From the NCBI GenBank assembly GCA_963666485.2, contig CAXXUO010000009.1, positions 128,001-192,000 on the forward strand: DNA of 64,000 nucleotides. Direction: 5' to 3'. The position numbers and the translations under genes were made by a program. Origin of the DNA: Syntrophorhabdaceae bacterium (GTDB taxonomy: Bacteria; Desulfobacterota; Syntrophorhabdia; Syntrophorhabdales; Syntrophorhabdaceae). Positions 3,821 through 22,678 of the stretch are shown piece after piece. Numbering within the stretch: position 1 is the first letter of the stretch; each line of letters starts with the position of its first letter. The notes beneath the pieces were generated by a model. That model ran no database searches. It was not told the origin of the DNA and saw only the letters and a list, made by a program, of their open reading frames with translations.

Positions 3821-4734
3821 CAGGTTGCAACCCTGTTTCTGCCCGCCTTCTTCGCCGCGTACATCAACGCGTCCGCGCGTTTTATGATGCCGTGCGCGGA
3901 GTCTTTCTTGCGGGCCAGCGTGACGCCTATCGATATGGTGATATGGGTGTCGCTCCCGTCAAGCGGTACCGTGGACCTTTCGACGAGTACCCGCAGTTTT
4001 TCTGCAACATGGCGGAGCTTCTCTTCGTCCACGTTTGTGACGAAGGCAACGAACTCCTCTCCTCCCCATCGGCTGACTACGTCCGACGACCGAAGGCCGT
4101 TGTTTATCGTGGCGGCGATCAGGCGCAGCACCCTGTCGCCGGCTTCGTGACCGTATGTGTCATTGACGTTCTTAAACCTGTCGATATCGATGAAAAGGAC
4201 CCCGAAGGCCCACCCGTAGCGCTTGAGCTCCCTTAACTTGTTCGTGAGGTTCATCTCCCCGTACCGCCTGTTCCCGAGCCGGGTCAAAGGGTCGAGCAGG
4301 GCCATGCGTTCGAGTTCGCGGAGTTTCCTCGTCAGGTCCTGGCTCGAATAATTGTCGCTGAAAACTTCTGCGGCGCCTATCACAACGCCCTTGCTGTCGA
4401 GTATCGGCGCTATCCTGACGATCACGGGAACCTGGTGACCTTCCCGATGGTGAAAGAAAAGCTCTGCCTCCTTGTTCTTTCCTTCCCGCATAGCGGCCTC
4501 GAGAAGACACCGGTTGTCGCACAGTGCGGCCCCGTCATTGTCGATGTGCTTGAGGATATTGTCCCAGCAATACCTGCCGACGATCTCGGACCGTTTGTAA
4601 CCCGTCATTCTCTCTGCAGCTTCATTCCAGTACTGGATCTTGCGGTCTTTATCGACAACGTAGACGCCTTCGTACAGGTTGTCGAGAAGTTTATGATAGA
4701 AGGAATCGGTCAGAAGACCCCGGGTACGAGGCAT
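3820..4734 (-). CDS. PAS-domain diguanylate cyclase
   Basis: PAS region (WNEAAERMTGY), DIDRFKNVNDTYGHEAGD and RWGGEEF; likely start is ATG at 4734 (MPRTRG), just after the tldD stop. Confidence 0.92.
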   Translation of the reverse strand: MPRTRGLLTDSFYHKLLDNLYEGVYVVDKDRKIQYWNEAAERMTGYKRSEIVGRYCWDNILKHIDNDGAALCDNRCLLEAAMREGKNKEAELFFHHREGHQVPVIVRIAPILDSKGVVIGAAEVFSDNYSSQDLTRKLRELERMALLDPLTRLGNRRYGEMNLTNKLRELKRYGWAFGVLFIDIDRFKNVNDTYGHEAGDRVLRLIAATINNGLRSSDVVSRWGGEEFVAFVTNVDEEKLRHVAEKLRVLVERSTVPLDGSDTHITISIGVTLARKKDSAHGIIKRADALMYAAKKAGRNRVAT

Positions 4735-4736
4735 GA

Positions 4737-6116
4737 TTATCCGCCGCGGCCTCCCACGATGATCCCCGGTATCCGCAAGGTAGGCTGGGCGTCTGCAACG
4801 GGCACTCCCTGCCCGTCCTTCCCGCACGTGCCTATCCCGAACCCGAGGTCGCACCCCACCATGTCGATGTCCTTGAGCACCTTCAGCCCGTTTCCCATCA
4901 TCGTCGCGTTCTTGATCATCGGCCCGACAGTGCCTTTTTCGATCAGGTACCCTTCCGATATTTCGAAGACAAAATCACCGCGCACGGTATCGACCTGGCC
5001 GCCGCCCATCTTGACGACAAAAACACCGTCGTCAACGGATGCGAGGATCTCGCCGGGGTCGTGTTTTCCCGGCACGATCATCGTGTTGCTCATGCGCGGT
5101 ATCGGCCTGAAACGGTATGATTCACGCCTGCCGTTCCCCGTCGACGGCATCGCGTGTTTCATGGCGTGGAACCGGTCGAAGAGATAGTTTTTGAGAACAC
5201 CGTGTTCAACGAGAACCGTGCGCTGCGATGAGGTGCCTTCGTCATCGAACGCGTACGTGCCGCGCATATGGGGGATGGTCGCATCGTCGACAACGCCGAT
5301 GAGGGGCGACGCTATCTCCTGCCCGAGAAGCCCCTTGTAGCAGGACAGTCCTTCCATGGCGAGGTCTGCCTCGAGCCCGTGGCCGATCGCTTCATGGATC
5401 ATCGTCCCGCCGGCTTCCGACGCGAGGACGACAGTCTTCGCTCCACTCGGGGCCTCGCGCGCGGCAAGAAGGCCCGATAACCGCCTGACCGTTTTCTCGG
5501 CAAGCGACCCCATCAGCTCGTCGGTGAAATACTCAAACCCGTAGAACCCGCCTGCCGCCTCGTACGACGTCTGCATCTCGGAGCCGTCCCGCCCGACGAG
5601 AAGCACCGTGAACACAACCTGCATCCGGCTGTCGCGCTTAAGACCTTTGTCCGTGGTCGCTATCGTAACTTCCTGGCGCGTATCCCGGTACATAATGCGG
5701 ACCTGGATGATCCGCGGCTCCAGGGAACGGACCTTTGCCTCGAAGTTCCTCACGAGCGCAAGTTTATCCTTGACATCGACGCCGCCGGGGTCGCGGGAGA
5801 TCGAAAAAGGATACGCTGCGCTCGCCTCGCCCGCGGACAACAGGGCGGCCTCACCTTTCCGTGAACCCGTATAACCGGACAGCTTCTGAGCAAGGGACGT
5901 GAGCCGCGCCTCGTCGAAGGAATTTGTCGAGGCGTAATAGGTCTTCCAGGGATCGATCACCCTCAACCCGACCCCGGCATCCTCACCCTGCTCCAGTTTT
6001 TCGACCTTTCCGGATTCAAGCTGGATAAGGGTGTAATTCCGTACATCGACGTACGTATCGGCGTACGCACCCGAGCGGTCCATAAGCGCTTCGAGTATCC
6101 TCTTCTCATTGAACAT
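4737..6116 (-). CDS. tldD: TldD/PmbA family metalloprotease
   Basis: HEAIGHGLEAD (HExxGH), DDEG, PRMSNT, GTCGKDGQGVPV. Confidence 0.92.
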   Translation of the reverse strand: MFNEKRILEALMDRSGAYADTYVDVRNYTLIQLESGKVEKLEQGEDAGVGLRVIDPWKTYYASTNSFDEARLTSLAQKLSGYTGSRKGEAALLSAGEASAAYPFSISRDPGGVDVKDKLALVRNFEAKVRSLEPRIIQVRIMYRDTRQEVTIATTDKGLKRDSRMQVVFTVLLVGRDGSEMQTSYEAAGGFYGFEYFTDELMGSLAEKTVRRLSGLLAAREAPSGAKTVVLASEAGGTMIHEAIGHGLEADLAMEGLSCYKGLLGQEIASPLIGVVDDATIPHMRGTYAFDDEGTSSQRTVLVEHGVLKNYLFDRFHAMKHAMPSTGNGRRESYRFRPIPRMSNTMIVPGKHDPGEILASVDDGVFVVKMGGGQVDTVRGDFVFEISEGYLIEKGTVGPMIKNATMMGNGLKVLKDIDMVGCDLGFGIGTCGKDGQGVPVADAQPTLRIPGIIVGGRGG

Positions 6117-6360
6117 CGGGTGCCTCCCTGAATCCTATTCCATAGTGTACCATATCGGCGACGATGCCCCGGACATCCTCCTCGAAGGACGCCGGATAGA
6201 TAAGCTCTATGAGGCCGCGGTCACCGTCAAGGACGGAAAAAATGGCGACGTCCTCGTATGATTCGAGGATCGCCTTAAAAAAACCGATGCCGCTGCGGTC
6301 CATGATGTACCGTTTTGTCCGCTCCTCGAAAACACGTCGGCCATCCTGCGGCATTGTCAA
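6106..6360 (-). CDS. Small conserved protein, DUF4911-like
   Basis: IGFFKAILESYEDVA...SVLD motif; overlaps both neighbours. Confidence 0.65.
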   Translation of the reverse strand: MTMPQDGRRVFEERTKRYIMDRSGIGFFKAILESYEDVAIFSVLDGDRGLIELIYPASFEEDVRGIVADMVHYGIGFREAPDVQ

Positions 6361-7361
6361 TCCTCTCTTCCTTCGAGCATTTCGATGAACGCCTCGATGC
6401 GGTTCTTCGTTCTCGTATCGAGGGTACGCGGCAGGTCGCCCTCGATCGTCAGGATCGGGACCGGGATCGTGTCCCGCAGGATAAGGTCCTCGATCGCACG
6501 AAAGCAGAAAGACTGAATATAATGGATGACCCCTTTGATCCCGCGCCGCTCGATCTCTTTGCCTATATCTTCCAGACGGGCAAAAATACCGTACGGGTAC
6601 GTGTAGAGAAGATACCGCTCGACCAGGTCCCGGGTATGGTACGGGAGCGCAAACTGCCTTTGTGTCTCGTTATAGACGACATGGCCGCCGACCTCTTCGA
6701 TAAATTCATACAACCCGTCTATAATGGGCGGTACCCCTATGTAGCCAAGGGGTATTCCTTCGAGCCTTTCACGTTTTCGCGCCTCCGTGATAAATCCTGC
6801 GGCGGCGTCGGAATATTCGATTATATTGCCGAGCATGTCCGATGAACGCACGAGCCAGAGATGGTTCTCGGCGCCTGTCACGTTCCGCTCGCTCCAGGTC
6901 ATCATGTCGATCTCTTCGAGGTAGGACCGTGCCACCGTCAACTCTTTTTCCACCCTCAGGCTCGATCCCCTGTCCGGTGAAAGCTCTTTCTTCAGCTTCT
7001 CGATCTCCCGTGCCAAAACTCTCTCGTCGCGATCGTACGGGAAAGAAAAAGGGATCGTCCGGATACCCTTGTAGCGAAGGATCTCGGCAAGTGCCTGCGT
7101 ATTGCTGCAATCGCCCTCCATGACCGTGATCACGGCGGCCATCTCATGTTCCATGATAACGCCATAGATCCCCTTGATCCACGTGCAGATGCTGTGCGGG
7201 AAACCGTCACGTTCCGCCCGGTCGACAAAATGCTGGGGGTCGGGGTCTTTCATGAAGATATTGTTGAGGTCGCAGGGGGTATAGCCGGCGGCGAAGATGA
7301 TCTCGACAGGTATGGTCGTCGTAAAACCAACAACCCCTTTTCCCGGTGCTGGTGTCATCAT
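6357..7361 (-). CDS. 2-hydroxyacyl-CoA dehydratase family (HGD-D) subunit
   Basis: VGFTTTIPVE, ICTWIKG, GDCSNT, QSFCFR, LTIEGD, RIEAFIEML; start taken at ATG 7361. Confidence 0.82.
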   Translation of the reverse strand: MMTPAPGKGVVGFTTTIPVEIIFAAGYTPCDLNNIFMKDPDPQHFVDRAERDGFPHSICTWIKGIYGVIMEHEMAAVITVMEGDCSNTQALAEILRYKGIRTIPFSFPYDRDERVLAREIEKLKKELSPDRGSSLRVEKELTVARSYLEEIDMMTWSERNVTGAENHLWLVRSSDMLGNIIEYSDAAAGFITEARKRERLEGIPLGYIGVPPIIDGLYEFIEEVGGHVVYNETQRQFALPYHTRDLVERYLLYTYPYGIFARLEDIGKEIERRGIKGVIHYIQSFCFRAIEDLILRDTIPVPILTIEGDLPRTLDTRTKNRIEAFIEMLEGRED

Positions 7362-7432
7362 AGTTCTAAAGATAATACTTTTTTCCGTAATGTTGCAACA
7401 TTGCGTTACAGGTCGCATCAGCCTGAAAGACC

Positions 7433-7716
7433 TCTCTCGCCCGTTCGTCGCTAAAGCTCCTCTCTCGAGTTCGCGGAGTTCGCGGAGAAAGGCGGAGGCC
7501 GCGGGAGCCCGGAGCCTTACCAGGCTCCCGCGGCACTTCGATCCTGCCCTTCAGGCAGGATGGACCGCTTGGTCTATTAATATGTTTTTTTTCTTTTCCT
7601 CGGCGAAGCCGACGAAAGTGCCGGCTGGTCGTGGTCGGCTCCGCGACCAGCCGGCAAAGTCTTTTCCTTCGCAATTCTCTGTGTTCTCTGTGAGCTCGAG
7701 CGAAGCGGGCGAGAGA
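7433..7716. repeat. 284-bp non-coding element with terminal inverted repeats and three internal hairpins (MITE-like or structured RNA)
   Basis: Termini TCTCTCGCCCG / CGGGCGAGAGA; internal stems GCCGCGGGAGCC/GGCTCCCGCGGC, ATCCTGCC/GGCAGGAT, TGCCGGCTGGTCG/CGACCAGCCGGCA. Confidence 0.7.
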
Positions 7717-7723
7717 ATGTCTT

Positions 7724-8857
7724 TTATCGAAATTTCTTTTTCGCCAGGTTCTTGTCGCTGTATCGCGGATCGTCGGTGACTTTTTTCCCGATGGTGATGA
7801 AGGCGGGGATATCGGGCTGGCCCTTACTGCCGGGGCCCGGTGACTCGGCGCGCAGTATGATGAGGCCCTTGTGTTTTCCGTTATACACATCGATCTCGTA
7901 ATACCTGTTGTTCCAGAGAAAACAGATCCGGTCCTTTGACAGGGCCTGCATATTCCGGTCTTTCAGGCCCGCGAGCCTCGTGTACTCGTGTTCAGGTATG
8001 AGCTCTTCCTCTTCGACAGGCTGGTTATCGCCTGCGGTCCTCGTGCGCGCCAGGAAATAGAAATTCATCCCGTCCTGCCCGCGCCTGCGTATCCGGATCT
8101 GTGCCCCTTTCTCTTTTGTACGCAGGTAGATCTGCTCGATATCGAGCCGCTGGTGGGGAGGAAGGCCCGACATATCGATGTCGCGGACCAGGTACTTTTC
8201 CTGTATGGGGGGGACATCGGGTATGCCGACCATCGCGGCGAGCGCGGAGAACGTCCGGCGCATCTTTGCCTCGAAGTCGGTGCTGTTGTCGATGATCTTG
8301 AAGCGCGGGTGGCCAAGCCAGCTCTCCTGGGTCCTCAGGTCGATCCTCAAGGCCTCCTCAGCCGTTTCGAGGCGGGCGGAATTGTTCTCGCCCGTGTAAT
8401 AATCCGGCGCCCCGTCGGCCGCGGTCACGAGGTGAATGATGCCGTCGTACCTGTGGCGGATCGCAGCCCGCGTCATGCTTTTTTTCTTCAGGATACTGTT
8501 AAAGACATCGTCGGTCAGAAATGCCCGGATATCCATGATGCCCCTGTCAAGCAGTATCACCTTCCGGCGTTCGGGAAATATGCGGGAGACTGCCTGTTTG
8601 TACGTGTCCTCGAACGAGATCTGCATATCGAAGATCGCCTCTTCGAAGACGACGATCTGTCCCGGCTTGTCCATCTTGCGCCGGTCGATCCCGTTCCCCG
8701 TAATAAGCGTCGCCGTCTCCGGCACGACAAACACCATGAACCCATGGTCGGAAAGCCTCTCCGTCAGGTACGCCAGCGAAGAGCTCTTCCCGGAGCACGG
8801 CCCCCCGGTAAGGACGATCATGGAAACGGGATTGAGTAAGCGGGATGAATCCGGCAT
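7724..8857 (-). CDS. P-loop kinase/ATPase (AAA_28/NadR-like) fused to a CYTH-like domain
   Basis: IVLTGGPCSGKSS Walker A, LLDRGIMD, IHLVTAADGA; C-terminal EKYLV, IEQIYL, YEIDVY; start at ATG 8857 because the ORF extension runs into the repeat. Confidence 0.8.
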   Translation of the reverse strand: MPDSSRLLNPVSMIVLTGGPCSGKSSSLAYLTERLSDHGFMVFVVPETATLITGNGIDRRKMDKPGQIVVFEEAIFDMQISFEDTYKQAVSRIFPERRKVILLDRGIMDIRAFLTDDVFNSILKKKSMTRAAIRHRYDGIIHLVTAADGAPDYYTGENNSARLETAEEALRIDLRTQESWLGHPRFKIIDNSTDFEAKMRRTFSALAAMVGIPDVPPIQEKYLVRDIDMSGLPPHQRLDIEQIYLRTKEKGAQIRIRRRGQDGMNFYFLARTRTAGDNQPVEEEELIPEHEYTRLAGLKDRNMQALSKDRICFLWNNRYYEIDVYNGKHKGLIILRAESPGPGSKGQPDIPAFITIGKKVTDDPRYSDKNLAKKKFR

Positions 8858-8870
8858 AGAACTCCGTAAA

Positions 8871-8962
8871 AACTGGTTCAAGGTTCAAAGTTTGACGCCG
8901 AACCTTAAACGTTTCTTCGTTTTTTTACTTTGAACCTTGAACTTTGAACCTTGAACCGTCTT
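8871..8962. repeat. Inverted heptamer tandem-repeat element, (R)GTTCAA family
   Basis: GGTTCAAGGTTCAAAG ... TTGAACCTTGAACTTTGAACCTTGAACC. Confidence 0.88.
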
Positions 8963-10012
8963 TCAGCTGTTTACAATATTTCTCCAATCCGTCACCACCG
9001 GATCGAAGCCTTTCGCTGTGAGCATTGCCTTGACCTCATCGAAGGTCCGCGGGTCGAAGACCTGGAACTGGCCGTCGTCGTACTCGGACTTGTCGATGTA
9101 TCCGCCGACGCGGGTCGAAGACCCGGCCGACATCTTCGTCACGCCGAACTCGAAGATGCGGTCCCGGAATTCGGGCGTCTCCCGTGTCGAGAGGCTTATC
9201 CCGGCCCGGGGGAAGAACAATCGCGCCGCGCACATGATCTTCAGCATCTCCCTGTCGGTAACCTCAATGTAATTATGCTCGTCGTCGACGACACGCCTCA
9301 AGCGCGGGAACGCGAGGCCAAACTCGACGCCCGGGTACTTTCTCTCGAGGTTCCTGATATGCTGGAAAAGGGCGATGATGTCCTGCCGCCAATCGGTGAG
9401 GCCAAGGAGGACCCCCATCGATATGTGGCGCATCCCCGAACGCGCGATGCGGTCCGGGGCCTCGACACGGTAGTCATAGACCTTCTTCGGCCCGGCAAGG
9501 TGAAGCTCGTCATAGCGGGCCCGGTCATACGTTTCCTGGTAGAGTGTCACCCCGTCAACCCCCGCGAGGTAAAGCTCGCGGTACTCATTCTCTTCGAGGG
9601 GATAGACCTCGACGGCGACGTAGGGGAAATGGCGGCCGGCGATGATGCAGGCGTCCCGGATATACTGCGGCGAAGAATGGAAGCGCGACTCTCCCGTCAG
9701 GATGAGGCAGCTGCGGATCCCGGTCGCGGCGAGCGCGGCGCATTCCCTGTCTATCTCGTCCATCGTGAGCTTGCTGCGCGGAATTATCTTTGACGACGCG
9801 TGGAAACCGCAATAGACGCATTCATTCTGGCAATAATTGGCTATGTAGAGGGGGGCATACAGGCTGATCGTCCGCCCGAACTGGCGCCGCGTCAGCTCGC
9901 GCGCCGCATACGCCATTTCTTCGAGCAGGCCCCTGTCGTCATACGAAAAAATGCGGCGAATGTCACCGATCGTCAGATGCTCGAGGTCAATTCCGGACAA
10001 ACCTTTATTCAT
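8963..10012 (-). CDS. thiH: 2-iminoacetate synthase (radical SAM tyrosine lyase)
   Basis: [42 protein letters not shown]; follows thiG. Confidence 0.93.
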
Positions 10013-10781
10013 CGTAGAGGAACCCCGTGAGCGGCGATGAAGCGCGTGCTATCGACCTTTCTTTTCCCATTTTTGCGAGATACGCCATCCTGCCTGCTTC
10101 AACACCCCGCGCGAATGCCATCGCCATGAGCGGCGGGTCCTCGGCGTCCGCGACGGCGGTATTGGCAAGCACCGCGTCCGCGCCTATCTCCATTGCCTCG
10201 GCGGCATGGGACGGCCTGCCAATTCCCGCATCGACCACGATCGGGACCTCGTTGATCTCTTCTATGAGAACTTCGATAAGAGCCCTCATCCTGAGGCCCT
10301 GGTTGGACCCGATAAGGGAGCCGAGCGGCATGACCGCCGCCGCCCCGGCGTCTACCAGCTCCTTCGCGACATACAGGTCGGGGTTCATGTACGGCAGGAC
10401 GGTAAAACCCTCGGCGGACAATATCTTCGTCGCCTTTACCGTCTCCCGGTTGTCGGGCAGGAGGTACCGGCTGTCATTGATCACCTCGATCTTGATCCAG
10501 TCGCCGTACCCGGCCTCCCGGGCGATGCGGGCTATCCTGACCGCCTCGTCCGAATTTCTTGCACCCGACGTGTTCACCATGATGGTGGTCCCCTCAGGAA
10601 TGAAGGAGAGGATGTTCTCATCCGTGTCTTCGAGGTCTATCCTGCGCAGGGCGACCGTCACGAGCTGAGAGCCCGAGGTCAGGATCGCCTGTTTCATCGC
10701 CTCCTTGTTCCCGAACTTCCCGGTGCCGAGGAAAAAACGGCTTGTAAATTCCCTGCCGGCGATCAAGAGTTTATCTTCCAT
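10005..10781 (-). CDS. thiG: Thiazole synthase
   Basis: [38 protein letters not shown]; start at ATG 10781. Confidence 0.97.
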
Positions 10782-10782
10782 G

Positions 10783-10983
10783 TCAGCCCCCTCCCACAAA
10801 GGACACCATCTCTATGCGGTCTCCATCGGTGAGGACCGTCAAAGGCCACTGGTCGCTTTTCACGACGCCATCGTTAAGGACAAGGATCACCCGCTCGGGG
10901 TTCGCCCTGCCTGAATAGACGAGCCGGTGGAGGTCCATGCCTTCCGCAATCTCCGTCTGCCTGCCGTTCACTGTGATCTTCAT
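10783..10983 (-). CDS. thiS: Thiamine biosynthesis sulfur carrier
   Basis: MKITVNG...[13 protein letters not shown], 66 aa, ends in Gly-Gly. Confidence 0.95.
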
Positions 10984-11573
10984 TGTGCTGCCTTCCTGAT
11001 ACGTTTCAATAATGCCGGCGCGTCGGTGCATGCCCGTACGACGCCGATCGTTTTTGCCCCTGCCTCGAGGACATCGTCGATATTCGTAAGGTCGATGCCG
11101 CCGATCGCGACTGCCGGTATGTCGAGGTTCTGCGCCGCTTCCCTGACGTACGCAAGGCCGACCGCGGGCCTGCCCGGCTTTGTCGGCGTCGGGTAGACGG
11201 GGCCGGTCGAAATGTAATCCGCTCCGTCCGCGATCGCCTGCCTGCCCTGTTCGAGATTATGCGTTGTCTTGCCGATGATCATATCGCTGCCGACGATCGC
11301 GCGCGCGTCCTTCGTCGACATATCCTGCCCGATGTGGACCCCGTCCGCCCCCGCTTTTACTGCGAGCCGCGCGTCATCGTTCAGGATGAAGATAAAATCC
11401 CTGACCTTTTTGTATTCCACGATCTCGCGCGCCTTCTCGAGAACGGCACTTTCGTCGCCCGTCTTGTCGCGCAACTGCACGATCGCGGCCCCATCGTCAA
11501 CCGCCTGCTTTAAGTCGTCCACGGACGCAGAAATGACATAAAGGTCATTTCTGAATGGTAATCTTCGCGTCAT
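10980..11573 (-). CDS. thiE: Thiamine-phosphate synthase
   Basis: VQLRDK, ILNDD, GADGVHIGQD, GPVYPTPTK, AIGGI. Confidence 0.95.
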   Translation of the reverse strand: MTRRLPFRNDLYVISASVDDLKQAVDDGAAIVQLRDKTGDESAVLEKAREIVEYKKVRDFIFILNDDARLAVKAGADGVHIGQDMSTKDARAIVGSDMIIGKTTHNLEQGRQAIADGADYISTGPVYPTPTKPGRPAVGLAYVREAAQNLDIPAVAIGGIDLTNIDDVLEAGAKTIGVVRACTDAPALLKRIRKAAQ

Positions 11574-11643
11574 TTCTGCTATTAAATTACATCAAAATGG
11601 CTGACAAGTCCAAGATTCTCTGACACATCGCCGAAAGAGCCTT

Positions 11644-12081
11644 TCAGCCGCCGGAAAGCATCATGAAGCGCGGGCATTCCTGGAGCTCCGCTTCCTTATG
11701 GCCTTTTTCTTCCTTGTAACACAAGATATCGACCAGGTTATTGTAGCTCTTCACGTGCCAGCCGTCGATCAGCCTCATGACCGTCGGGTCGCCCCAATCC
11801 CAGGTCTTTGCCTCCGTAATCTCGCATACCCTCGATCTCCTGTTCTCGAGGTTCAGCACCCTGAGCACCAGTTTCGGCGCGCCGTTCGACCCGGCCTTGC
11901 CGGCCCAGGGGTCCAGGTACTCGTTCACCGCCTTGAAGTACTGTGAGATGCGGTCATTCTGTTTTTCGGAATGGTCCTGCAGGACAATGTGGCGGTGCCG
12001 CCCCCTGTACACGCCGCATTCCGTGCACCTCTCATGTGTAAAGGGACATGTTGCGAGACATGCTTTCGATTCTTCTGCCAT
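11644..12081 (-). CDS. Uncharacterised protein with N-terminal Cys/His cluster and C-terminal Gly-Gly (candidate sulfur carrier / ubiquitin-like protein)
   Basis: SD AAGGAG 8 nt before ATG; CPFTHERCTECGVYRGRH; ends MMLSGG-stop; directly downstream of the ThiF/MoeB gene. Confidence 0.75.
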   Translation of the reverse strand: MAEESKACLATCPFTHERCTECGVYRGRHRHIVLQDHSEKQNDRISQYFKAVNEYLDPWAGKAGSNGAPKLVLRVLNLENRRSRVCEITEAKTWDWGDPTVMRLIDGWHVKSYNNLVDILCYKEEKGHKEAELQECPRFMMLSGG

Positions 12082-12123
12082 ACGTCTACTCCTTCGAAAG
12101 TTTTTTATCTTTTATATTCATAT

Positions 12124-13293
12124 TCAGTGGCATACGCCTCCTGGCAATCCGCCTTCCTTCAATTCCCTGATAGTCGGGTTCGTGCCGCACAACGGGCATT
12201 CGGGGTTCCTCGTGACCTCGATCGTCTTATGGAATGCCTCCAACGCGTTGTAAACATAGAATTTTCCGATCATCGGCTTGCCGAGGCCTGCCGCGACCTT
12301 CAGTGCTTCAACCGCCTGTATCAGGCCTATTTGACCCGGGACGACCCCCAGGACGCCTGCGTCGCTTCAGGTAGGGACGAGGTGCTCCGGCGGCGGCTCC
12401 GGGAACATGCACCGCAAGCACGGCCCGCCCGATGCCGGGTGAAAAACGCCGGCCTGTCCGTCAAACGCGACGGCGCCCCCGAAAATGTAGGGCTTGCCTG
12501 TAAAAAAACAGGCGTCGTTAAGGAGGAATTTCGTATTGATGCTGTCCGTCCCGTCAATGACGATATCGAACCCTTCGATAATCCGATATACGTTTCCCGC
12601 ATCGACCCGCTCATTGAACAGGACGGTCTTTATATGGGGATTGAGCCGCCTTATGCCTTCTTCGGCGGATTCTGTCTTCAACCTTCCCACGTTTTCCGAC
12701 AAATGGAGGACCTGGCGGTTAAGGTTCGAGATCTCCACCCGGTCAAAATCGGCTATGCCTATCGTTCCCACCCCGCATGCTGCGAGATAGAGCAGTGCCG
12801 GGCACCCGAGCCCGCCGGCCCCGACGACAAGCATCTTCGCGCGGGAGAGCCTGCGCTGCCCGTCCTCGCCCATCCCCTTGAGGATGATATGCCTGCTGTA
12901 GCGCTCGTATTCATCCTGGCTGAAAAAACCCGCTTCATTGACAACCGGGAAGCCCCTCTGGGCCCACGCCGATATGCCCCCGGTCAGCGAGTAAAGGTTC
13001 CGGTAGCCCATCCTCTCGAGCTTCGACAAAGCTTTCAGCGACCTCACACCAATGGCGCAGTACACGATAATAGGCCTTGCGCGATCGTCAGGAAGTTTGC
13101 CTTCGCTCCCTTCGATCTCATCGAGAGGAATATGGACCGCGCCTTTCAGGCAGCCGCGCGTCGTCTCCCATTTCTCACGGACGTCGATAATGACAGGAGG
13201 GTCGGATGATTCGGCAAGGCGCCGGGTCTCTTCGGGAGAAATTTCGCCCCTGTTTGCCGGCCCGCCGCTATTCCTCGAATTGCTGTCTTTCAT
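12124..13293 (-). CDS. Rhodanese-ThiF/MoeB (E1-like adenylyltransferase) fusion, probable selenoprotein, 389 aa with Sec309
   Basis: Rhodanese IIVYCAIGVRS; RYSRH, VVGAGGLG, SNLNRQ, CLRC; in-frame TGA at 12369-12367 followed in frame by SDAGVLGVVPGQIGLIQAVEALK...RNPECPLCG...VCH-stop. Confidence 0.88.
12335..12352 (-). promoter_or_regulatory. Putative bacterial SECIS hairpin
   Basis: Minus strand, +15 to +32 after UGA: CCUGGG-GGUCGU-CCCGGG; GGUC in the apical loop as in the E. coli fdhF SECIS. Confidence 0.65.
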
Positions 13294-13297
13294 AGCT

Positions 13298-13936
13298 TTA
13301 ACCTCGCTTTGTGTCCGCTTTTGCGCTCAGGCAGAACACCGCCGTTCGTGCCAGAAGGTTCGGAAACAGGGCCGCCGGCCGCCTTGCCCCCGCGTAGCGA
13401 GCGTCTTCGATCCGCACCCTGCGCGCCCGGCAATACCGCACAAAATCATCGATACTCAGGAAATGCAGGTTCGGCGTGTCGTACCACTCATGGGGCAGTG
13501 CCGGCGTGACGGGCGCCCGGCCCCGGAAAAATATCTGGAACCGTGAGGAGACATGCGCAAAGTTGGGTATACCGACAATGACTTTCCCGCCCACTCTCAA
13601 GGCCTCCTTAAGTACGGTATCCGGATTCTTGACCTGCTGGAACGACTGGTTCAGGATCACGTAGTCGAAGGAGTTGTCGCCATATTCGGCCAGGCCCGAG
13701 TCTATATCGTCATGGAAGACGCTGAGCCCTTTCACGACGCATTCGAAAATGGCGTGGCTGTCGATCTCAATGCCCTGCCCCCTGACACCTTTTCGCCGCA
13801 CGAGAAGGCCCAATAATTCACCCGTGCCGCACCCCAGGTCGAGGACGGTGGAACCCGGTTTCACCATATCGACGATTAGCCGGTGGTCGATCCGGCCGCC
13901 GCCGTTCAAATTTTCATGCGGCCCGTCTGCCATCAT
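13298..13936 (-). CDS. metW: Methionine biosynthesis protein MetW
   Basis: [33 protein letters not shown]; overlaps metX. Confidence 0.93.
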
Positions 13937-15080
13937 AAACCTTCTTCAAGAAATGCGTGTACAAATACGTCTGCTCGTCAAACTCCACGAGAAACGCGTC
14001 GTGCCCGTAATGTGACGTCAATTCGCAGTATGTTGCGTCCGCGCCGGCCATCTTGCAGGCCTTCACGATCTGCTGCGACTGGTACGGAGGGTACAGCCAA
14101 TCGGACGAAAAGGCGATGATAAGGAGCTTGGTTCCTACGCCTTCCAGGAGCTTATGCAAGGGTTTGCCGTTCGCCGCGGCAAAGCTGTCAACCGCCTTTG
14201 TTATATACAGGTATGAGTTCGGATCGAAGCGGTTGATGAAGTTATACCCCCGGTAATGCAGGTACCCTTCCACCTCGAATTCCGGGCTGAATTTGAACGG
14301 CTGTTTTTTGTCCTTCACGCGCCGGCCGAACTTCTCGTTCATCGAATCGTCGCTCATGTACGTGATATGGCCGATCATCCGCGCGACGCTCAGGCCCTTG
14401 TCGGGAAGATCGAGGCCGTAATAATCCCCGTTGTTCCAGTTGGGGTCCGCCATGATCGCCTGCCTTCCCACCTCGTTGAAGGCTATCTGCTGGGGAGTGT
14501 GCTCCGCGGTCGTCGCGATAAGGATGGCCGATGCCACATTTTCCGGGTACGACACGACCCACTGAAGGGCCTGCATCCCACCCATGGACCCGCCTGCCAC
14601 CCCAAGGAGCCTGTCTATCCCGAGATGGTCGAGAAGCCGCTTCTGGGCGTTGACCATGTCCTTGATGGTGACCACGGGGAATTCGAGACCGTACGGCCTT
14701 CCCGTGAGCGGGTTTTCCGAGGAGGGCCCCGTCGAGCCCCTGCACCCGCCCAGGATATTGCTGCAGATAACGAAATAACGGTCCGTATCGAAGGCACGGC
14801 CCGGACCGATCATATCATCCCACCAGCCGGGATTTGTATCGCCTTCATGATAACCGGCCGCATGTGCATCGCCCGTCAGCGCATGGAGGATGAGAATAGC
14901 ATTCGAGGCTTGTGCATCGAGCCTGCCGTACGTCTCGTATGCGAGAGTGACAGGCCCGATGCTTTCTCCGGATTCCAGTATAAACGGCGCAGGAAAGTGA
15001 CCAAAGGTAAAGGACTGTGCTCTTGCCGGCCCGATACCATCGTGCTGACCTGCTTCAACTTTCTCTGCCCTGAGGTTCAT
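13914..15080 (-). CDS. metX: Homoserine O-acetyltransferase
   Basis: [33 protein letters not shown]. Confidence 0.95.
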
Positions 15081-15096
15081 AAGGCTCCTGTTTTTA

Positions 15097-16416
<1,320 letters not shown>

Positions 16417-16495
16417 TTCGGTCTCCTTTTTTCAGTTTTCTTAAAATCGTAAACGTTTTTCAGGGACTGCCAGGTGAGAGAACCCGCCCGGGGCT

Positions 16496-16942
16496 CTAAA
16501 TGTAGTACATCATAGAGTCTTGCTGCCCTTTGAGCTGCTGCATTTCAACAAGGGTAGCAATTGAATAATCGTTGAGGGTGTTCCGGATAGCGGCGCCCAG
16601 CTTGTTCCAGATCTCACGGGTGACGCACACGCCGGATTTGTCACAAACTGCTGTATTCTGCACGCAGTCAACAAGGGTACAGGGCCCTTCAAGTATGGTG
16701 ATAATATCGAGGATCGTTATCTGATCGGCCGGCCGGTCGAGGAGGTAGCCCCCTTTTCTGCCGCGCTGCGCCTTCACGATGCCGCCTTTGTGGAGGGCCG
16801 AGAATATGTGCTCGAGGTACTTCTCGGAAACGTTCTGCCTTTTCGCGATATCGGAAAGGAACACGGGGGTGCCGTTCGTACCGTGCACCGCGAGGTCTAT
16901 TATCGCCCGCAACCCGTATCTTCCTTTTGTCGATATCTTCAC
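16496..16942 (-). CDS. Rrf2 family transcriptional regulator (IscR/CymR-like, Cys-containing)
   Basis: MKISTKGRYGLRA, SEKYLEHI, RGRKGGYLL, DCVQNTAVCDKSGVC; GTG start. Confidence 0.93.
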   Translation of the reverse strand: MKISTKGRYGLRAIIDLAVHGTNGTPVFLSDIAKRQNVSEKYLEHIFSALHKGGIVKAQRGRKGGYLLDRPADQITILDIITILEGPCTLVDCVQNTAVCDKSGVCVTREIWNKLGAAIRNTLNDYSIATLVEMQQLKGQQDSMMYYI

Positions 16943-16949
16943 GTAATCA

Positions 16950-16966
16950 CCTACTAAATTAATGGG
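16950..16966. promoter_or_regulatory. Putative Rrf2 operator 1 (CCTA-N9-TGGG)
   Basis: CCTACTAAATTAATGGG, 3 bp from the -10 box of the leftward promoter. Confidence 0.65.
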
Positions 16967-16969
16967 AAT

Positions 16970-16998
16970 AGTATAGATATCTTGTTGACATGTGTCAA
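16970..16998 (-). promoter_or_regulatory. sigma70 promoter of the rrf2-met operon
   Basis: Minus strand TTGACA-17bp-TATACT. Confidence 0.8.
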
Positions 16999-17013
16999 GA
17001 CGTTTTTTATAAT
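16985..17013 (+). promoter_or_regulatory. sigma70 promoter of the hydE-like/nifU/nifS/cysE operon
   Basis: Perfect consensus TTGACA-17bp-TATAAT. Confidence 0.85.
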
Positions 17014-17031
17014 CGTGCGGAAAGTTATTAT

Positions 17032-17048
17032 CCTATCTGTTACGTAGG
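17032..17048. promoter_or_regulatory. Putative Rrf2 operator 2 (CCTA-N9-TAGG)
   Basis: CCTATCTGTTACGTAGG, downstream of the rightward promoter. Confidence 0.65.
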
Positions 17049-17074
17049 CATTTTATGTATTATATTAACCTGGC

Positions 17075-18136
17075 ATGAAAGTCGGCAACGATCACAATAG
17101 AGAAAAACAGGTCATCGGCAAGGATGAGGTTCTGGGGCTCCTCAAAAGCGAGGGTGACGACATCGGCCTGCTGTACGCCCGCGCGGACAGGGTCCGCCAG
17201 GAGCACATGGGGGACGAGGTGTATGTCCGCGGCATTATCGAATTCTCCAACCTGTGCGCGAATGACTGCCTCTATTGCGGCATACGGGCCTCGAATTTCA
17301 ATGTCAACCGCTATTCAATGAGCATCGACGATATCATGCAGACCGTTGGCTCTTTCGAGCGAATGGGGCAGACGACGGTAGTGCTGCAGTCCGGGGAGAC
17401 CCCGGGCTTAAGCGACGAGGATATCGGGAGGCTCATCAGGACGATCAAGTCAGAGACGTCCCTTGCCGTTACGCTCTCCGTCGGCAATCGTTCACGGGAG
17501 GTATACCGGTACTGGAAAGAATGCGGAATGGACAGGTACCTCATCCGTTTCGAGACGACAGACCGGCGGTTGTTCGCCCGCCTGCACCCGGATTGCTCGT
17601 TCGACGAGCGGGTCGCGTGCCTGCATATCCTCAAGGACCTCGGCGTACAGACGGGGAGCGGGTTCATGATCGGCGTCCCGGGCGAGACCCTCGACGTGCT
17701 TGCGGACAACATACTTTTTTGCAGGGAACTCGACCTCGACATGATAGGGATCGGGCCGTACATACCGCATCCCGACACACCTCTTGCCGATGAACCGAAC
17801 GCGTACGCGGGCAGTGAAGAGACCTTCTACAAGGCCGTTGCCGTGCTGCGGCTCGCGAACCCCGATGCCCATATCCCGGCGACCACCGCGTTTGACGCGG
17901 TGTTTCCCGGCGTCGGCAGGAATCTTGCCCTCACGCGCGGGGCCAACATTTTTATGCCGAACAACACGCCGGTCGAGCACAGGAAGGATTATCTCCTCTA
18001 CCCGGGGAAGCCGTGCGTCGATGAGAACGCGGACCAGTGCGTTGCCTGCGTCATGATGCGGATCGAGTCGATCGGGCGAAAAATAGGGGCGGGGCCGGGA
18101 CACTCTTTAAAAAGCGCTAATAAAAGGCTACAATAA
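17075..18136 (+). CDS. hydE: HydE-like radical SAM protein (BioB/HydE family)
   Basis: RGIIEFSNLCANDCLYCG, VVLQSGE, MIGIGPYIPHPDTPL, IPATTA, YLLYPGK, C-x7-C-x2-C tail. Confidence 0.8.
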   Translation: MKVGNDHNREKQVIGKDEVLGLLKSEGDDIGLLYARADRVRQEHMGDEVYVRGIIEFSNLCANDCLYCGIRASNFNVNRYSMSIDDIMQTVGSFERMGQTTVVLQSGETPGLSDEDIGRLIRTIKSETSLAVTLSVGNRSREVYRYWKECGMDRYLIRFETTDRRLFARLHPDCSFDERVACLHILKDLGVQTGSGFMIGVPGETLDVLADNILFCRELDLDMIGIGPYIPHPDTPLADEPNAYAGSEETFYKAVAVLRLANPDAHIPATTAFDAVFPGVGRNLALTRGANIFMPNNTPVEHRKDYLLYPGKPCVDENADQCVACVMMRIESIGRKIGAGPGHSLKSANKRLQ

Positions 18137-18192
18137 CCTGTATGCATTCAGGCCGGTACGGCCTGAAATTCACAAAGGGAAAGGAGCACATT

Positions 18193-19029
18193 ATGTGGGA
18201 ATATACGGACAAGGTAAAAGAGCATTTCCTCAACCCGAAGAATGCCGGGGAGATCGAGAACCCCGATGCCGTGGCTGAAGTGGGCTCCATCGCCTGCGGG
18301 GACGCCTTGAAACTGACCATGAAGCTCGACGAGAACAAAAAGATCGTCGACGCGAAGTTCAAGACCTTTGGATGCGCCAGTGCTATCGCGTCCGCGTCCG
18401 CGCTGACCGAACTCCTCAAGGGGAAAACGATCGAAGAAGCGGAAAAGATAACCAACCAGGAGATAGCGGATTACCTTGGCGGGCTCCCCCCTGAAAAGAT
18501 GCACTGCTCCGTCCTCGGCCAGGAGGCCCTCGAAAAGGCGATCGAGAACTACCGGGGCGTCTCCCATAAGATGCCCGAGGAAGTGATCGTCTGCGCCTGC
18601 TTCGGCGTGACCGACGGCGAGATCGAACGGGCCATCCGGCAGAACCACCTCACCAGCGTCGAAGAGGTGACAAACTATACGAAAGCCGGCGGCGGGTGTG
18701 GGAACTGCCATGAGAAGATACAGGCCATTATCGACCGCGTCTATGAAACGAAAGAAAGACAGGCCGAGCCGGTGGAGCGGCCGAAGCTCTCGAACCTCCA
18801 GAAGATCCGTATGATCGAGGAGACGATCGATCGCGAGATACGCCCGTCGCTCAAGCACGACGGCGGGGACATAGAGCTCGTCGACGTGGTCGGCAACAGG
18901 GTGCTCGTCGCGATGCGCGGTGCGTGCGCCACGTGCCAGGCGTCCCAGGCGACGATGAAAGGGTTCGTACAGGGGAAGCTCCAGGAATTTGTTGCACCGG
19001 AGCTCGTCGTTGAGGAGGTGGCATCATGA
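18193..19029 (+). CDS. nifU: Fe-S cluster assembly scaffold NifU
   Basis: ACGD, FGCASA, KMHCS, CACFG...GGCGNC, GACATC; SD AAGGAG before ATG 18193. Confidence 0.96.
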   Translation: MWEYTDKVKEHFLNPKNAGEIENPDAVAEVGSIACGDALKLTMKLDENKKIVDAKFKTFGCASAIASASALTELLKGKTIEEAEKITNQEIADYLGGLPPEKMHCSVLGQEALEKAIENYRGVSHKMPEEVIVCACFGVTDGEIERAIRQNHLTSVEEVTNYTKAGGGCGNCHEKIQAIIDRVYETKERQAEPVERPKLSNLQKIRMIEETIDREIRPSLKHDGGDIELVDVVGNRVLVAMRGACATCQASQATMKGFVQGKLQEFVAPELVVEEVAS

Positions 19030-20207
19030 AAACGATCTACCTTGACAATAATGCGACAACGATGGTGGCGCCGGAAGTGGTCGAGGAGATGCTGCCCTAC
19101 CTGCACGAGTATTACGGCAACCCCTCGAGCATGCACACGTTCGGCGGGCAGGTCGGCCGCAAGATAACCGAGGCGCGCCAGAAGATCGCCTCGCTGATCG
19201 GGGCGGAGTTGGACGAGATCATCATCACGAGCTGCGGGACGGAAAGCGACAACACCGCGATAATGTCGGCGCTCGCGAACAACCCTGCAAAGAACCACAT
19301 CGTGACGAGCAGGGTCGAGCATCCCGCAGTAAAGGTTTTGTGTGAACATCTCGCCCAGAAAGGGTACCGGGTCACGTTCATACCGGTCGATGCGGACGGC
19401 CGTCTCGACATGAACGAGTACGAGGCAAGCTTAACGCCGGATACCGCGGTCGTGAGCATCATGTGGGCGAACAACGAGACGGGCGTTATATTCCCCGTTG
19501 AAAAGGCAGCCCGCCTCGCCCGCGATAAAGGCATCCTCTTTCATACGGACGCGGTCCAGGCCATCGGGAAAATTCCCGTCAACATGAAACAAAACGCGAT
19601 CGACATGCTCTCGCTTTCCGGCCACAAACTCCATGCACCGAAAGGCGTCGGCGTGCTCTACGTCCGCAAGGGAACGAAGTTCTCGCCGTATTTGATCGGC
19701 GGGCACCAGGAAAAAGGGCGCCGGGGAGGGACGGAGAATGTCCCGAGCATAGTGGCCCTCGGCAAGGCGTGTGAGCTCGCCGCAGCCAACATGGAAAAGG
19801 AGAACACGTATGTCAGGGACCTGCGCGACAGGTTTGAGAAAGGTCTGTGCGCCGCAATACCCAGCTGCAAAATAAACGGAACGACGGAAGAGCGCCTTCC
19901 CAACACCCTCAATATCAGCTTCGAGTTCATCGAAGGCGAAAGCATCCTGCTTCTCATGGACCAGTTCGGCATCTGTGCGTCATCCGGGTCGGCCTGCACA
20001 TCGGGCTCCCTGCAGCCGTCCCACGTCCTGCGGGCGATGGGCGTCCCCTACACGATGGCCCACGGGTCCGTCCGCTTCAGCCTCAGCGTCTATAACACGG
20101 CCGAAGAAGTCGACACCGTCATCAGGGAACTGCCGGCGATAATCGAGAAACTGAGAGTCCTCTCCCCGTACTGGGCCACATCGCAGGGGGCATGCGCGAC
20201 CGCCTGA
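19026..20207 (+). CDS. nifS: Cysteine desulfurase NifS
   Basis: YLDNNATT, ANNETG, HTDAVQ, SGHKLH, SSGSACTS. Confidence 0.96.
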   Translation: MKTIYLDNNATTMVAPEVVEEMLPYLHEYYGNPSSMHTFGGQVGRKITEARQKIASLIGAELDEIIITSCGTESDNTAIMSALANNPAKNHIVTSRVEHPAVKVLCEHLAQKGYRVTFIPVDADGRLDMNEYEASLTPDTAVVSIMWANNETGVIFPVEKAARLARDKGILFHTDAVQAIGKIPVNMKQNAIDMLSLSGHKLHAPKGVGVLYVRKGTKFSPYLIGGHQEKGRRGGTENVPSIVALGKACELAAANMEKENTYVRDLRDRFEKGLCAAIPSCKINGTTEERLPNTLNISFEFIEGESILLLMDQFGICASSGSACTSGSLQPSHVLRAMGVPYTMAHGSVRFSLSVYNTAEEVDTVIRELPAIIEKLRVLSPYWATSQGACATA

Positions 20208-20219
20208 AAGGATAACCGG

Positions 20220-21172
20220 ATGGAAGAAAAATTCGCGAAAGACGAGTGCAGGATCGATATCGCAACGAACCAGGACTACCGGTCACGGATCCACCCCCTT
20301 GTCGACAGGATCGTGTCCCAGTACGACAAGGACGGCAGGTTCCATCATATCGGCCCGGAACCGATCCCGTCGCGGCAGGCCATTATCGACATTATATACA
20401 AGACCATCCCATTCTGTTCCCGGGTTTCTTCTCGGACCACCGGATTGACGATTTCAATGCGGAATATTACCTGGGCCAGCAGATAACGGAACTCTTCGAG
20501 GCGCTGACGATACAGATACAGCACGCGATACGCCATGACTGCATCCGTTTCAACAAGGTGTGTGTCCGGTGCGAGGAGCGCTCGCACGAGATCGGCCTCA
20601 AATTCATCGAGGCAGTACCGGACCTCCAGAAAAAACTGGCGACCGATGTCCGGGCGGCATTTGAGGGAGACCCGGCTTCCCGTCATTTCGACGAGATCAT
20701 ATTCAGTTATCCCGGTCTTTTCGCCATTGCCGTATACCGGGTCGCAAACTGGCTGCACCTCGCGGACGTCCCCCTTATCCCGCGCATTATGACGGAACAT
20801 GCCCACGGGCGGACGGGTATCGACATCCATCCCGGAGTCGAGATCGGGGACAGTTTCTTCATCGATCACGGCACGGGCGTGGTCATCGGTGAGACGACAA
20901 ATATAGGGAACCGCGTCCGCCTGTACCAGGGCGTGACCCTCGGCGCCCTTTCGTTGAGCAAGGACGAATGCCCCCTGCTGAGGGACACCAAGCGGCACCC
21001 CACCATAGAGGACGACGTGATCATCTACGCCAACGCGACCATCCTTGGCGGAAAAACCGTGATAGGGGCCCGGTCAGTCATCGGCGGCAACGTCTGGCTC
21101 ACCGAATCCGTACCGCCTGACACGTCGGTGTTCCTCAAAAAGCCGGAACTCGTCATGCGAAATAAAGTATAA
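20220..21172 (+). CDS. cysE: Serine O-acetyltransferase with one frameshift (single base missing near 20408-20410)
   Basis: Frame 1 MEEK...IPSRQAIIDIIYKT continues in another frame as ILFPGFF...GDPA...SYPG...GIDIHPG...FIDHGTG...LYQGVTLG...KRHPT. Confidence 0.85.
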
Positions 21173-21189
21173 TAGAGAAGCTGGATACA

Positions 21190-22326: not shown

Positions 22327-22338
22327 GAGGAACGAGAT

Positions 22339-22626
22339 ATGAAACAGCACTACCTTGAAAATGTAAGCACACTTCAACTGAACCCCGACAGGTGCACGGG
22401 GTGCGGGATGTGCTGCGATGTCTGCCCGCATGACGTGTTTGAACTCTCCGGGAAAAAGGCGCATATCCGCAATGTCGATGCCTGCATGGAATGCGGCGCC
22501 TGCGCGCGGAATTGCGCGTTCGGCGCTATAGCCGTCAATGCGGGCGTGGGCTGTGCAACGGGGATAATCATCGGCGCGCTGACCGGTACGGAGCCGAACT
22601 GCTGCGGCAGCGGGTCATGCTGCTGA
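22339..22626 (+). CDS. hgcB: Mercury methylation ferredoxin HgcB
   Basis: CTGCGMCCDVCP and CMECGACARNC, GVGCA, C-terminal CC pairs; 12 bp after hgcA. Confidence 0.95.
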   Translation: MKQHYLENVSTLQLNPDRCTGCGMCCDVCPHDVFELSGKKAHIRNVDACMECGACARNCAFGAIAVNAGVGCATGIIIGALTGTEPNCCGSGSCC

Positions 22627-22678
22627 ACTGAAGACCCCGCTCTGTTCCGAGCCCGCAGTCGACCTTCCCGGGCCCGGT

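Follow-up and report, generated by a model that had tools for sequence, protein, structure and literature searches.

Does an in-frame UGA in the gene of a bacterial E1-like enzyme end the protein, or is it read as selenocysteine (Sec), and, in the latter case, which protein does the enzyme activate? This question is raised by a gene found in a stretch of 64,000 nucleotides from a Syntrophorhabdaceae bacterium (called the window hereafter). On the reverse strand, the frame 13293-12124 encodes 308 residues up to a TGA at 12369-12367 (codon 309), runs on for 80 more codons and ends with a final TGA. A first analysis of the letters (the original prediction) placed Sec309 in a rhodanese-ThiF/MoeB enzyme of 389 amino acids, and suggested checking the TGA against reads, the pairing of Cys with UGA in homologues and the presence of selA, selB, selC and selD in the genome. 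Following up these points and the gene neighbourhood, we give a probability of roughly 60% to the following reading taken as a whole: UGA309 encodes Sec, the product is a Uba4-like Sec-E1, the orphan protein encoded next door is its main carrier and the sulfur serves homocysteine synthesis.

The locus and the integrity of its sequence

The features of the locus are collected in Table 1. Retranslation agreed with the original prediction on the 80 open codons and located the two features it had named on either side of the UGA, the N-terminal rhodanese Cys being C79 and the second zinc-binding CxxC being C366/C369. The former is conserved in all 17 of the 18 orthologues that cover the position, and the latter follows the TGA in 79 of the 80 TGA loci read in GTDB genomes. 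Among the NCBIfam models, the E1 exceeded the curated cut-off only for the subfamily model PRK05690 (282.4 for a cut-off of 266), its scores being below it for PRK08762 (418.8 for 449), thiF TIGR02356 (233 for 275.25) and moeB TIGR02355 (216.5 for 376.55). A search of positions 4000-24000 with Rfam gave no match and no riboswitch.

Table 1. Features of the locus in window coordinates
Feature	Position	Strand	Basis
Rhodanese-ThiF/MoeB (E1-like) gene, 389 aa with UGA309 read as Sec	12124..13293	-	Pfam ThiF E 3e-77, Rhodanese E 1e-17
N-terminal rhodanese domain, residues 20-112, active-site Cys79 at 13059-13057	12958..13236	-	Pfam
Adenylation (ThiF) domain, residues 132-367, spanning the UGA	12193..12900	-	Pfam; alignment with MoeB 1jw9
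First Zn CxxC (C292/C295)	12409..12420	-	sequence; aligned to MoeB and Uba4
In-frame UGA read as Sec309, crossover-loop position	12367..12369	-	alignment, orthologues, run contigs, 2005 family
SECIS-like hairpin, +15 to +32 after the UGA	12335..12352	-	folding; wobble conservation, TGA versus Cys genes
Second Zn CxxC (C366/C369), missing from the truncated annotation	12187..12198	-	sequence
Orphan 145-aa protein: Cys-rich N-terminal motif and putative ubiquitin-like core of ~79 aa (11883-11647) ending in Gly-Gly	11644..12081	-	alignments, fold, co-occurrence, complex model
metW	13298..13936	-	TIGR02081 over cut-off
metX, homoserine O-acetyltransferase	13914..15080	-	PRK00175 over cut-off
metY, O-acetylhomoserine sulfhydrylase, split by a one-base indel near 15747	15097..16416	-	run contigs without the indel
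Rrf2-family regulator heading the gene run; sigma-70-like site 16998-16970	16496..16942	-	profile; site is a consensus match only
thiE, thiS, thiG, thiH, same strand, after E1 and orphan	8963..11573	-	NCBIfam/Pfam

The E1 gene is identical (0 differences) in the run contigs X1 (8934-14292) and X3 (11177-12479), which confirm the TGA at the site. Since the runs behind both contigs represent one sample, possibly the source of the assembly itself, independent support for the TGA comes from other genomes. A divergent contig from a different study (X5) also spans the UGA site, codon 309 being outside that comparison. The frameshifts seen in metY (15747) and in cysE (20407) are absent from the run contigs: they are assembly indels, not pseudogenes.

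Evidence for selenocysteine at position 309

In an alignment of residues 125-370, residue 309 falls on the Cys of E. coli MoeB (1jw9), counted by hand as C187, and it also aligns with the thioester Cys position of Chaetomium Uba4, which is a Lys in 6z6s (C202K). A fused orthologue was found in 18 of 41 related genomes, with TGA at this codon in 11 and TGC or TGT in 7; 12 other loci read in these genomes correspond to a shorter paralogue lacking this Cys and were left out of the 18. Extended to the whole order, where the E1 is present in 43 of 96 genomes, the 38 loci read (matches for which no locus was fetched being outside the count) gave 25 TGA, 12 Cys and a single Ser, encoded by AGT in the orthologue L358 (G132). 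Of 120 homologues listed, 97 have Cys and 12 end exactly before the site, among them the database record of the window's own protein, with its 308 residues; the truncation by annotation pipelines foreseen in the original prediction has thus taken place.

The genome encodes the machinery that the decoding requires: selA, selB, selD and tRNA-Sec (selC) are all present. The selD gene (L011, G000:C2:512556-513467) has an in-frame TGA of its own, followed by a weak predicted hairpin of -7.6 kcal/mol. A second selA and a second selB, together with a metW, are found in a block of 63-71% GC (G000:C3:1-55000; L070, L001, L004) of this 55% GC genome, and this block of contig C3 has the look of a chimera or of foreign DNA, though a copy of each of selA and selB is located elsewhere in the genome. 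A recoded genome (code 4 or 25) was considered and ruled out, because TGA is the real stop in six of the eight genes checked (E1, orphan, thiE, thiS, thiH and metX) and the sole tRNA with a TCA anticodon is tRNA-Sec.

Across GTDB, a TGA-specific pattern recovered at least 119 loci with the same TGA, and in the 80 loci read the frame is open past it. Among the matches listed, the records are named as Rokubacteria/Methylomirabilota, Poribacteria, Latescibacterota, SAR324, Verrucomicrobia, Actinomycetota, Planctomycetota, Nitrospinota, Entotheonella and Syntrophaceae/Syntrophorhabdaceae. The rhodanese domain is N-terminal in 65 of the 80, C-terminal in 13 and was not found in 2. In seven loci (L078, L081, L098, L105, L132, L136 and L121, six from Latescibacterota and one other), the TGA is kept and the rhodanese Cys is replaced by Gly, so that they would encode a Sec-E1 with a dead rhodanese; in one of them, L098, iscS and apbC are found upstream.

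The distribution of selA follows that of the TGA: it scored over the cut-off in 73 of 79 other TGA-form genomes versus 1 of 14 controls, the 79 being the genomes of the 80 TGA loci minus one duplicate. An unpublished genome (G099, locus L130) is included here as well as in the rhodanese-layout, hairpin and tree counts, and some genomes are shared between the relatives and the GTDB set. Assembly indels such as those in metY and cysE could make one suspect that the TGA is a true stop, due to a sequencing error or marking a pseudogene; given the run contigs without a single difference and the at least 119 loci sharing the TGA and an open conserved frame that tracks selA, this explanation is hardly tenable. 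Among relatives, selA is present in 17 of 17, TGA and Cys users alike, and the existence of Cys versions in genomes that all have selA indicates that Sec is dispensable. Of these 17 relatives, 13 gave a tRNA-Sec, and among the 10 with the TGA form it was not found in 3; it is possible that incompleteness of the metagenome-assembled genomes explains such absences of tRNA-Sec or selA. Finally, a tree of 254 sequences built with the site masked requires at least 14 changes between Sec and Cys, several of them within the order (minimum for shuffles: 73); on this unrooted FastTree tree, a gain of Sec reads the same as a loss.

The SECIS-like hairpin

The original prediction had also placed a hairpin at +15 to +32 after the UGA, and its arms are located there. 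Its centroid structure has seven pairs and a GUCG loop. Taken alone, it is within chance (z of -0.33 versus shuffles), and among 5000 synonymous recodings 10.9% fold equally well and 29.2% retain 6/6 pairs. The lone hairpin is unremarkable because the codons of GVLGVVPG are GC-rich and self-complementary, and the support for it therefore comes from comparison across the family.

Among distinct sequences with GVLG..PG, all six stem pairs are present in 99 of 113 TGA genes versus 18 of 81 Cys genes. The difference persists when the genes are split into three GC bins (30/35 vs 0/6, 28/34 vs 7/34 and 41/44 vs 11/41 for TGA and Cys, respectively) and also when one identical peptide is considered, for which 88 of 92 TGA genes have 6/6 pairs versus 13 of 49 Cys genes. 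The Cys genes were obtained from a metagenome scan of 119 loci, from which 2 at edges, 1 duplicate and 35 without the peptide were removed; the TGA and Cys sets thus come from different collections, and related sequences in them do not count as independent. Inside the order, requiring 6/6 pairs separates the two forms only weakly (15/25 TGA vs 5/13 non-TGA), the mean hairpin energy is -13.3 for TGA vs -9.8 for Cys genes (p 0.018), and a codon pair picked after the data were seen, GTC-CTG, occurs in 20 of 25 TGA vs 2 of 12 Cys genes. As judged from these codon comparisons, wobble choice preserves the hairpin, which shows that Sec insertion is maintained by selection. We conclude that UGA309 is almost certainly decoded as Sec with the help of a SECIS hairpin formed by the codons of GVLGVVPG: the Cys/TGA pairing, the Sec machinery, the conservation of the hairpin at wobble positions and the truncation in databases all uphold what the original prediction had proposed for residue 309.

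A member of a predicted selenoprotein family

The original prediction spoke of a hidden selenoprotein, and on this point it has to be corrected, since the same Sec site is present in the 'MoeB' selenoproteins predicted in 2005 by Zhang, Fomenko and Gladyshev, who listed 11 of them in the portion of PMC1088965 available to us. According to the accessible parts of later papers, the family was listed again in PMC2398784 and PMC13188914 and, among predicted families, in PMC9312934, and recorded as not detected in PMC1976440. The selenoprotein of the window thus belongs to a family already predicted and is not a new one. Both have the ThiF/MoeB domain (PF00899, COG0476), and in the 2005 sequences that could be consulted Sec is likewise 14 residues past the first CxxC and is followed by xxxGVLGVxPG; in the supplement sequences seen, the site is the same by eye and the codons are able to form the same hairpin. 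Differences concern the layout and the context: the 2005 sequences consulted (4 proteins, 8/22 places) are of marine origin with the rhodanese at the C-terminus, whereas the protein of the window has it at the N-terminus and belongs to an anaerobic lineage, where its gene has met genes and that of an orphan carrier as neighbours. A rhodanese placed after the ThiF domain is the MoeZ/MOCS3 layout, from which the E1 of the window, with its rhodanese at residues 20-112, departs. This comparison is made with PMC1088965, and the supplements of the relisting papers may include the N-terminal form. No functional study of Sec-MoeB was found in the literature searched, mostly without subscription papers.

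The orphan Gly-Gly protein as candidate carrier

The next gene starts 42 bases downstream of the E1 gene and encodes a protein of 145 amino acids ending in LSGG. It matched no Pfam or NCBIfam family (0 Pfam families at E <= 1) and no PDB sequence, it is not among the genome's four matches to Pfam ThiS (PF02597), and its best scores in the ESM Atlas (0.78-0.80) were uninformative. Its named homologues are hypothetical proteins of Syntrophorhabdaceae. In 30 of 31 aligned homologues, which share the conserved core of ~79 residues, the C-terminus is Gly-Gly; a profile gathered 81 clusters at 50% identity, of which 52 end in GG and many others are fragments. When 401 genomes of the phylum were sampled, 9 gave a match. 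No description of this family was found in the literature searched, again mostly without subscription papers, and the protein appears to be new and a candidate substrate of the Sec-E1.

The E1 and the orphan protein co-occur at the level of genomes: among the 96 of the order, 38 have both, 5 only the E1, 3 only the carrier and 50 neither, and within the window's genus 4 have both and 16 neither. Here, a carrier was counted as present when its core matched (41 genomes), 27 genomes with only weak matches to the N-terminal motif being excluded, and p-values for such co-occurrence are overstated because the genomes are related. The carrier gene is less than 1 kb from the E1 gene in 26 of the 38 genomes with both; in G032, one of the genomes with the E1 only, a SAMP/MoaD-like carrier adjoins the E1. 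Several genomes have 2-4 copies of the core domain at varied places.

The AlphaFold model of the core has a pLDDT of 87 and a pTM of 0.72. With Foldseek, nearly all listed matches are ubiquitin, SUMO, NEDD8 and PB1 domains, with TM of about 0.45-0.56 and a best E of 0.011, none reaching 0.001; with VIA, the best match is PB1 (Z 7.9, rmsd 2.9 over 72 residues), a score that falls among those of commonly occurring arrangements. The modelled core is therefore suggestive, not decisive, of a divergent ubiquitin-like fold. Its long helix precedes the last strand; in ubiquitin, the long helix comes after strand 2. ThiS/MoaD chains are absent among the fold matches listed, which is still compatible with kinship. 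The orphan shares with the beta-grasp proteins ThiS, MoaD, SAMP and ubiquitin a small alpha/beta domain, a C-terminal Gly-Gly and an E1 as neighbour, and is unlike them in its late long helix, its conserved WxW motif and its optional Cys-rich N-terminal extension. In the full-length model, this extension is under a pLDDT of 50-60. It includes the motif CPF-x4-C-x2-C-x2-YRGRH (window 12081-11990), which also exists as small stand-alone proteins (L057:11719-11901, L326, L336, L338), often next to core-only carriers, and has weak matches in many genomes.

A complex was modelled for a stand-in pair, the Cys-form adenylation dimer of G019 and its own carrier. Folded with its own alignments, it scored 0.71, compared with 0.00 for the best of 3 controls; at least 88% of contacts coincide between runs, and the partner pLDDT is at least 79. 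The mark thus attained is also attained by 116 of 157 solved pairs and 2 of 215 mismatched ones, counts that apply roughly here. The model places the carrier tail (residues 75-80) in the adenylation cleft, next to the crossover loop, and the crossover residues 304-307 in the interface; the pair resembles the solved MoeB-MoaD and Uba4-Urm1 complexes, so that the good score may stem from memorised structures. Taking these data together, the orphan, putatively ubiquitin-like protein is probably the main carrier of the Sec-E1 in this bacterial order.

Could the orphan instead be a protein modifier conjugated to lysines in the manner of SAMP, TtuB or Urm1, with Sec309 as the E1 transfer residue and sulfur delivery as a secondary role? 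Its nearest folds are of the ubiquitin/SUMO type, several genomes have multiple core copies, and Urm1 and SAMPs serve in both jobs according to the part of PMC7911844 consulted. We consider this distinctly unlikely, since the rhodanese Cys is conserved, the genes around serve sulfur and Fe-S metabolism, a JAB protease was looked for in the genome and not found, and no E2-like neighbour was seen among the genes scanned.

Gene neighbourhood and the destination of the sulfur

The gene order in the window is rrf2-metY-metX-metW-E1-carrier-thiE-thiS-thiG-thiH. Among the 96 genomes, 31 have both the E1 and metW, 12 the E1 only, 4 metW only and 49 neither, and metW is less than 1.5 kb from the E1 in 16 of the 31. 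The corresponding numbers for thiG are 18, 25, 16 and 37 (p 0.29). The nearby thiamine genes are thus probably not the main client of the E1, which tracks the orphan Gly-Gly protein and metW, not thiG, and a main role in thiamine synthesis was rejected on the co-occurrence in the 96 genomes.

E1 enzymes often serve several carriers. One may thus ask whether the enzyme, with a genuine Sec, is simply the ThiF of the downstream thiS-thiG-thiH and the orphan a bystander: thiE, thiS, thiG and thiH follow the E1 on the same strand in the window, G002, G018 and G019, and no terminator-like site was seen between the E1 and thiE. In the window's genus, on the other hand, thiG is present in 20 of 20 genomes and the E1 in only 4, the score for the thiF equivalog is under its cut-off (233 vs 275) and the genome has another ThiF-domain gene, which makes this explanation unlikely.

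For the carrier preferred here, other systems offer a precedent. In Wolinella, MetY takes sulfur from a protein thiocarboxylate, according to the portions seen of PMC6271081 and PMC6225789 (second-hand), and related thiocarboxylate routes are described in the accessible parts of bioRxiv 10.1101/2024.10.14.618325 and PMC1779556. Wolinella MetY, Streptomyces MetM/MetO/MoeZ/Mec, Mycobacterium CysO/CysM and classes 4b-4e of PMC1779556, as far as these sources could be consulted, have like the window an E1 and a carrier beside metY/metX or cysteine synthase; unlike them, the window has a carrier that is not a recognised ThiS/MoaD member and, already ending in Gly-Gly, needs no trimming, and no JAB gene was found in its genome. 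By analogy, we would give about even odds to homocysteine, made through MetY, as the most likely destination of the carrier's sulfur, on which other enzymes that insert sulfur may draw as well. In G002, metW and the E1 flank a cysteine desulfurase. Carrier copies are also found beside bioB-like, nadA, ThiI-like, nifU/nifS, cysK and larE genes. Neighbours were identified from 117 hand-picked open reading frames out of 243 scanned; at high-GC loci the picks were mostly shadow frames, and the neighbourhoods of Rokubacteria, Poribacteria and Actinomycetota were left out. No sulfate-reduction genes were seen among the neighbours scanned.

Other loci of the Sec form (L077, L131, L133 and L103) have SAMP/MoaD-like carriers and ThrC-like and JAB-like genes as neighbours. 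In SAR324 (L103 and L145), the Sec-E1 has a SAMP/MoaD-like carrier on one side and on the other a protein of ~750 residues, the C-terminal half of which resembles cystathionine gamma-synthase. Outside the order, in L373 and L374, a Gly-Gly protein is encoded directly upstream of larE, a sacrificial sulfur transferase. In the window itself, overlapping divergent sigma-70-like sites (11/12 and 12/12) at 16970-17013 separate rrf2 from hydE-like, nifU, nifS and cysE genes, a possible Rrf2-controlled sulfur/Fe-S regulon as far as promoter consensus can suggest. At 7724-8881, a 385-residue AAA_28 NTPase with a C-terminal part without assignment is conserved after thiH in G002 and G018.

The crossover residue and the proposed chemistry

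The enzyme has the features of the Uba4/MOCS3 type: a P-loop, two CxxC, a crossover residue and a rhodanese Cys. With the Uba4/MOCS3-Urm1 relay it shares the adenylation domain joined to a rhodanese, the paired CxxC and a Gly-Gly substrate, the crossover-loop nucleophile of Uba4/MOCS3 being at the position equal to Sec309; it differs in its reversed domain order, in having Sec for Cys, in being bacterial, and in a candidate substrate unrelated to Urm1 in sequence. From this analogy we infer that the Sec-E1 is a two-domain E1/sulfurtransferase working like Uba4, MOCS3 and MoeZ with the domains reversed.

We infer by the same analogy the following chemistry and end product. The ThiF domain would adenylate the C-terminal Gly of the Gly-Gly carrier, and Sec309 would attack the adenylate to form an acyl-selenoester. 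A persulfide on the rhodanese Cys79, supplied by a cysteine desulfurase, would then displace the acyl-selenoester and release the carrier as a thiocarboxylate (carrier-COSH), the sulfur of which would be passed to O-acetylhomoserine by MetY to give homocysteine. Sec would speed the capture of the adenylate and be a better leaving group.

The original prediction called the residue at this position the catalytic Cys, with Cys184 as the active-site residue of ThiF. The designation stands for Uba4 (C225/C202; PMC6007339 and PMC7527816, as far as available), where, according to the part of PMC6007339 seen, the crossover Cys, indispensable both in vitro and in vivo, forms a thioester and the rhodanese Cys is needed as well, and where, in the accessible text of PMC7527816, the C202K structure 6z6s was used for trapping Urm1. 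It does not hold in the same way for E. coli MoeB, for which the part of PMC7911844 consulted states that no MoaD-MoeB thioester was identified. Moreover, Uba4 C202 additionally protects against self-conjugation (same portion of PMC7527816), and residue 309 may be protective instead of an acyl carrier. A rather unlikely alternative is accordingly that Sec309 is inserted without an obligatory acyl intermediate, its role being that of a redox residue that resolves or protects, or of a near-neutral substitute of Cys; the MoeB result, the protective role of C202, the repeated Sec/Cys changes on the tree and the Ser of L358 speak for it, and the requirement for the crossover Cys in the rhodanese-fused Uba4 (PMC6007339, in part) and the wobble selection on the hairpin, by which Sec insertion is maintained, speak against it.

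Rhodaneses and desulfurases can also handle selenium. Given that the genome uses Sec and that the transfer site of the E1 carries one, this could mean that the system traffics selenium and makes a carrier-selenocarboxylate, which is very unlikely considering that Cys orthologues share the same neighbours and that no sel gene was seen among the neighbours scanned.

Significance

The Sec-MoeB family has been a prediction since 2005, labelled 'molybdopterin biosynthesis'. With natural Sec and Cys orthologues, a candidate substrate and an intact rhodanese, it becomes testable here whether the crossover residue is an acyl carrier in a bacterial E1. Two consequences concern annotation: the closest database records end at the UGA and lose a zinc site, and the carrier family, with its 81 clusters, is without a Pfam or NCBIfam model. 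More tentatively, and with the odds somewhat against it, the orphan protein could be the founder of an undescribed, divergent bacterial ubiquitin-like family, which the E1 of these syntrophic anaerobes would pass on via an acyl-selenoester on Sec309 to supply homocysteine synthesis and further enzymes that insert sulfur, or else conjugation to proteins. If true, a ubiquitin-like activation cascade would be running on selenium in these organisms.
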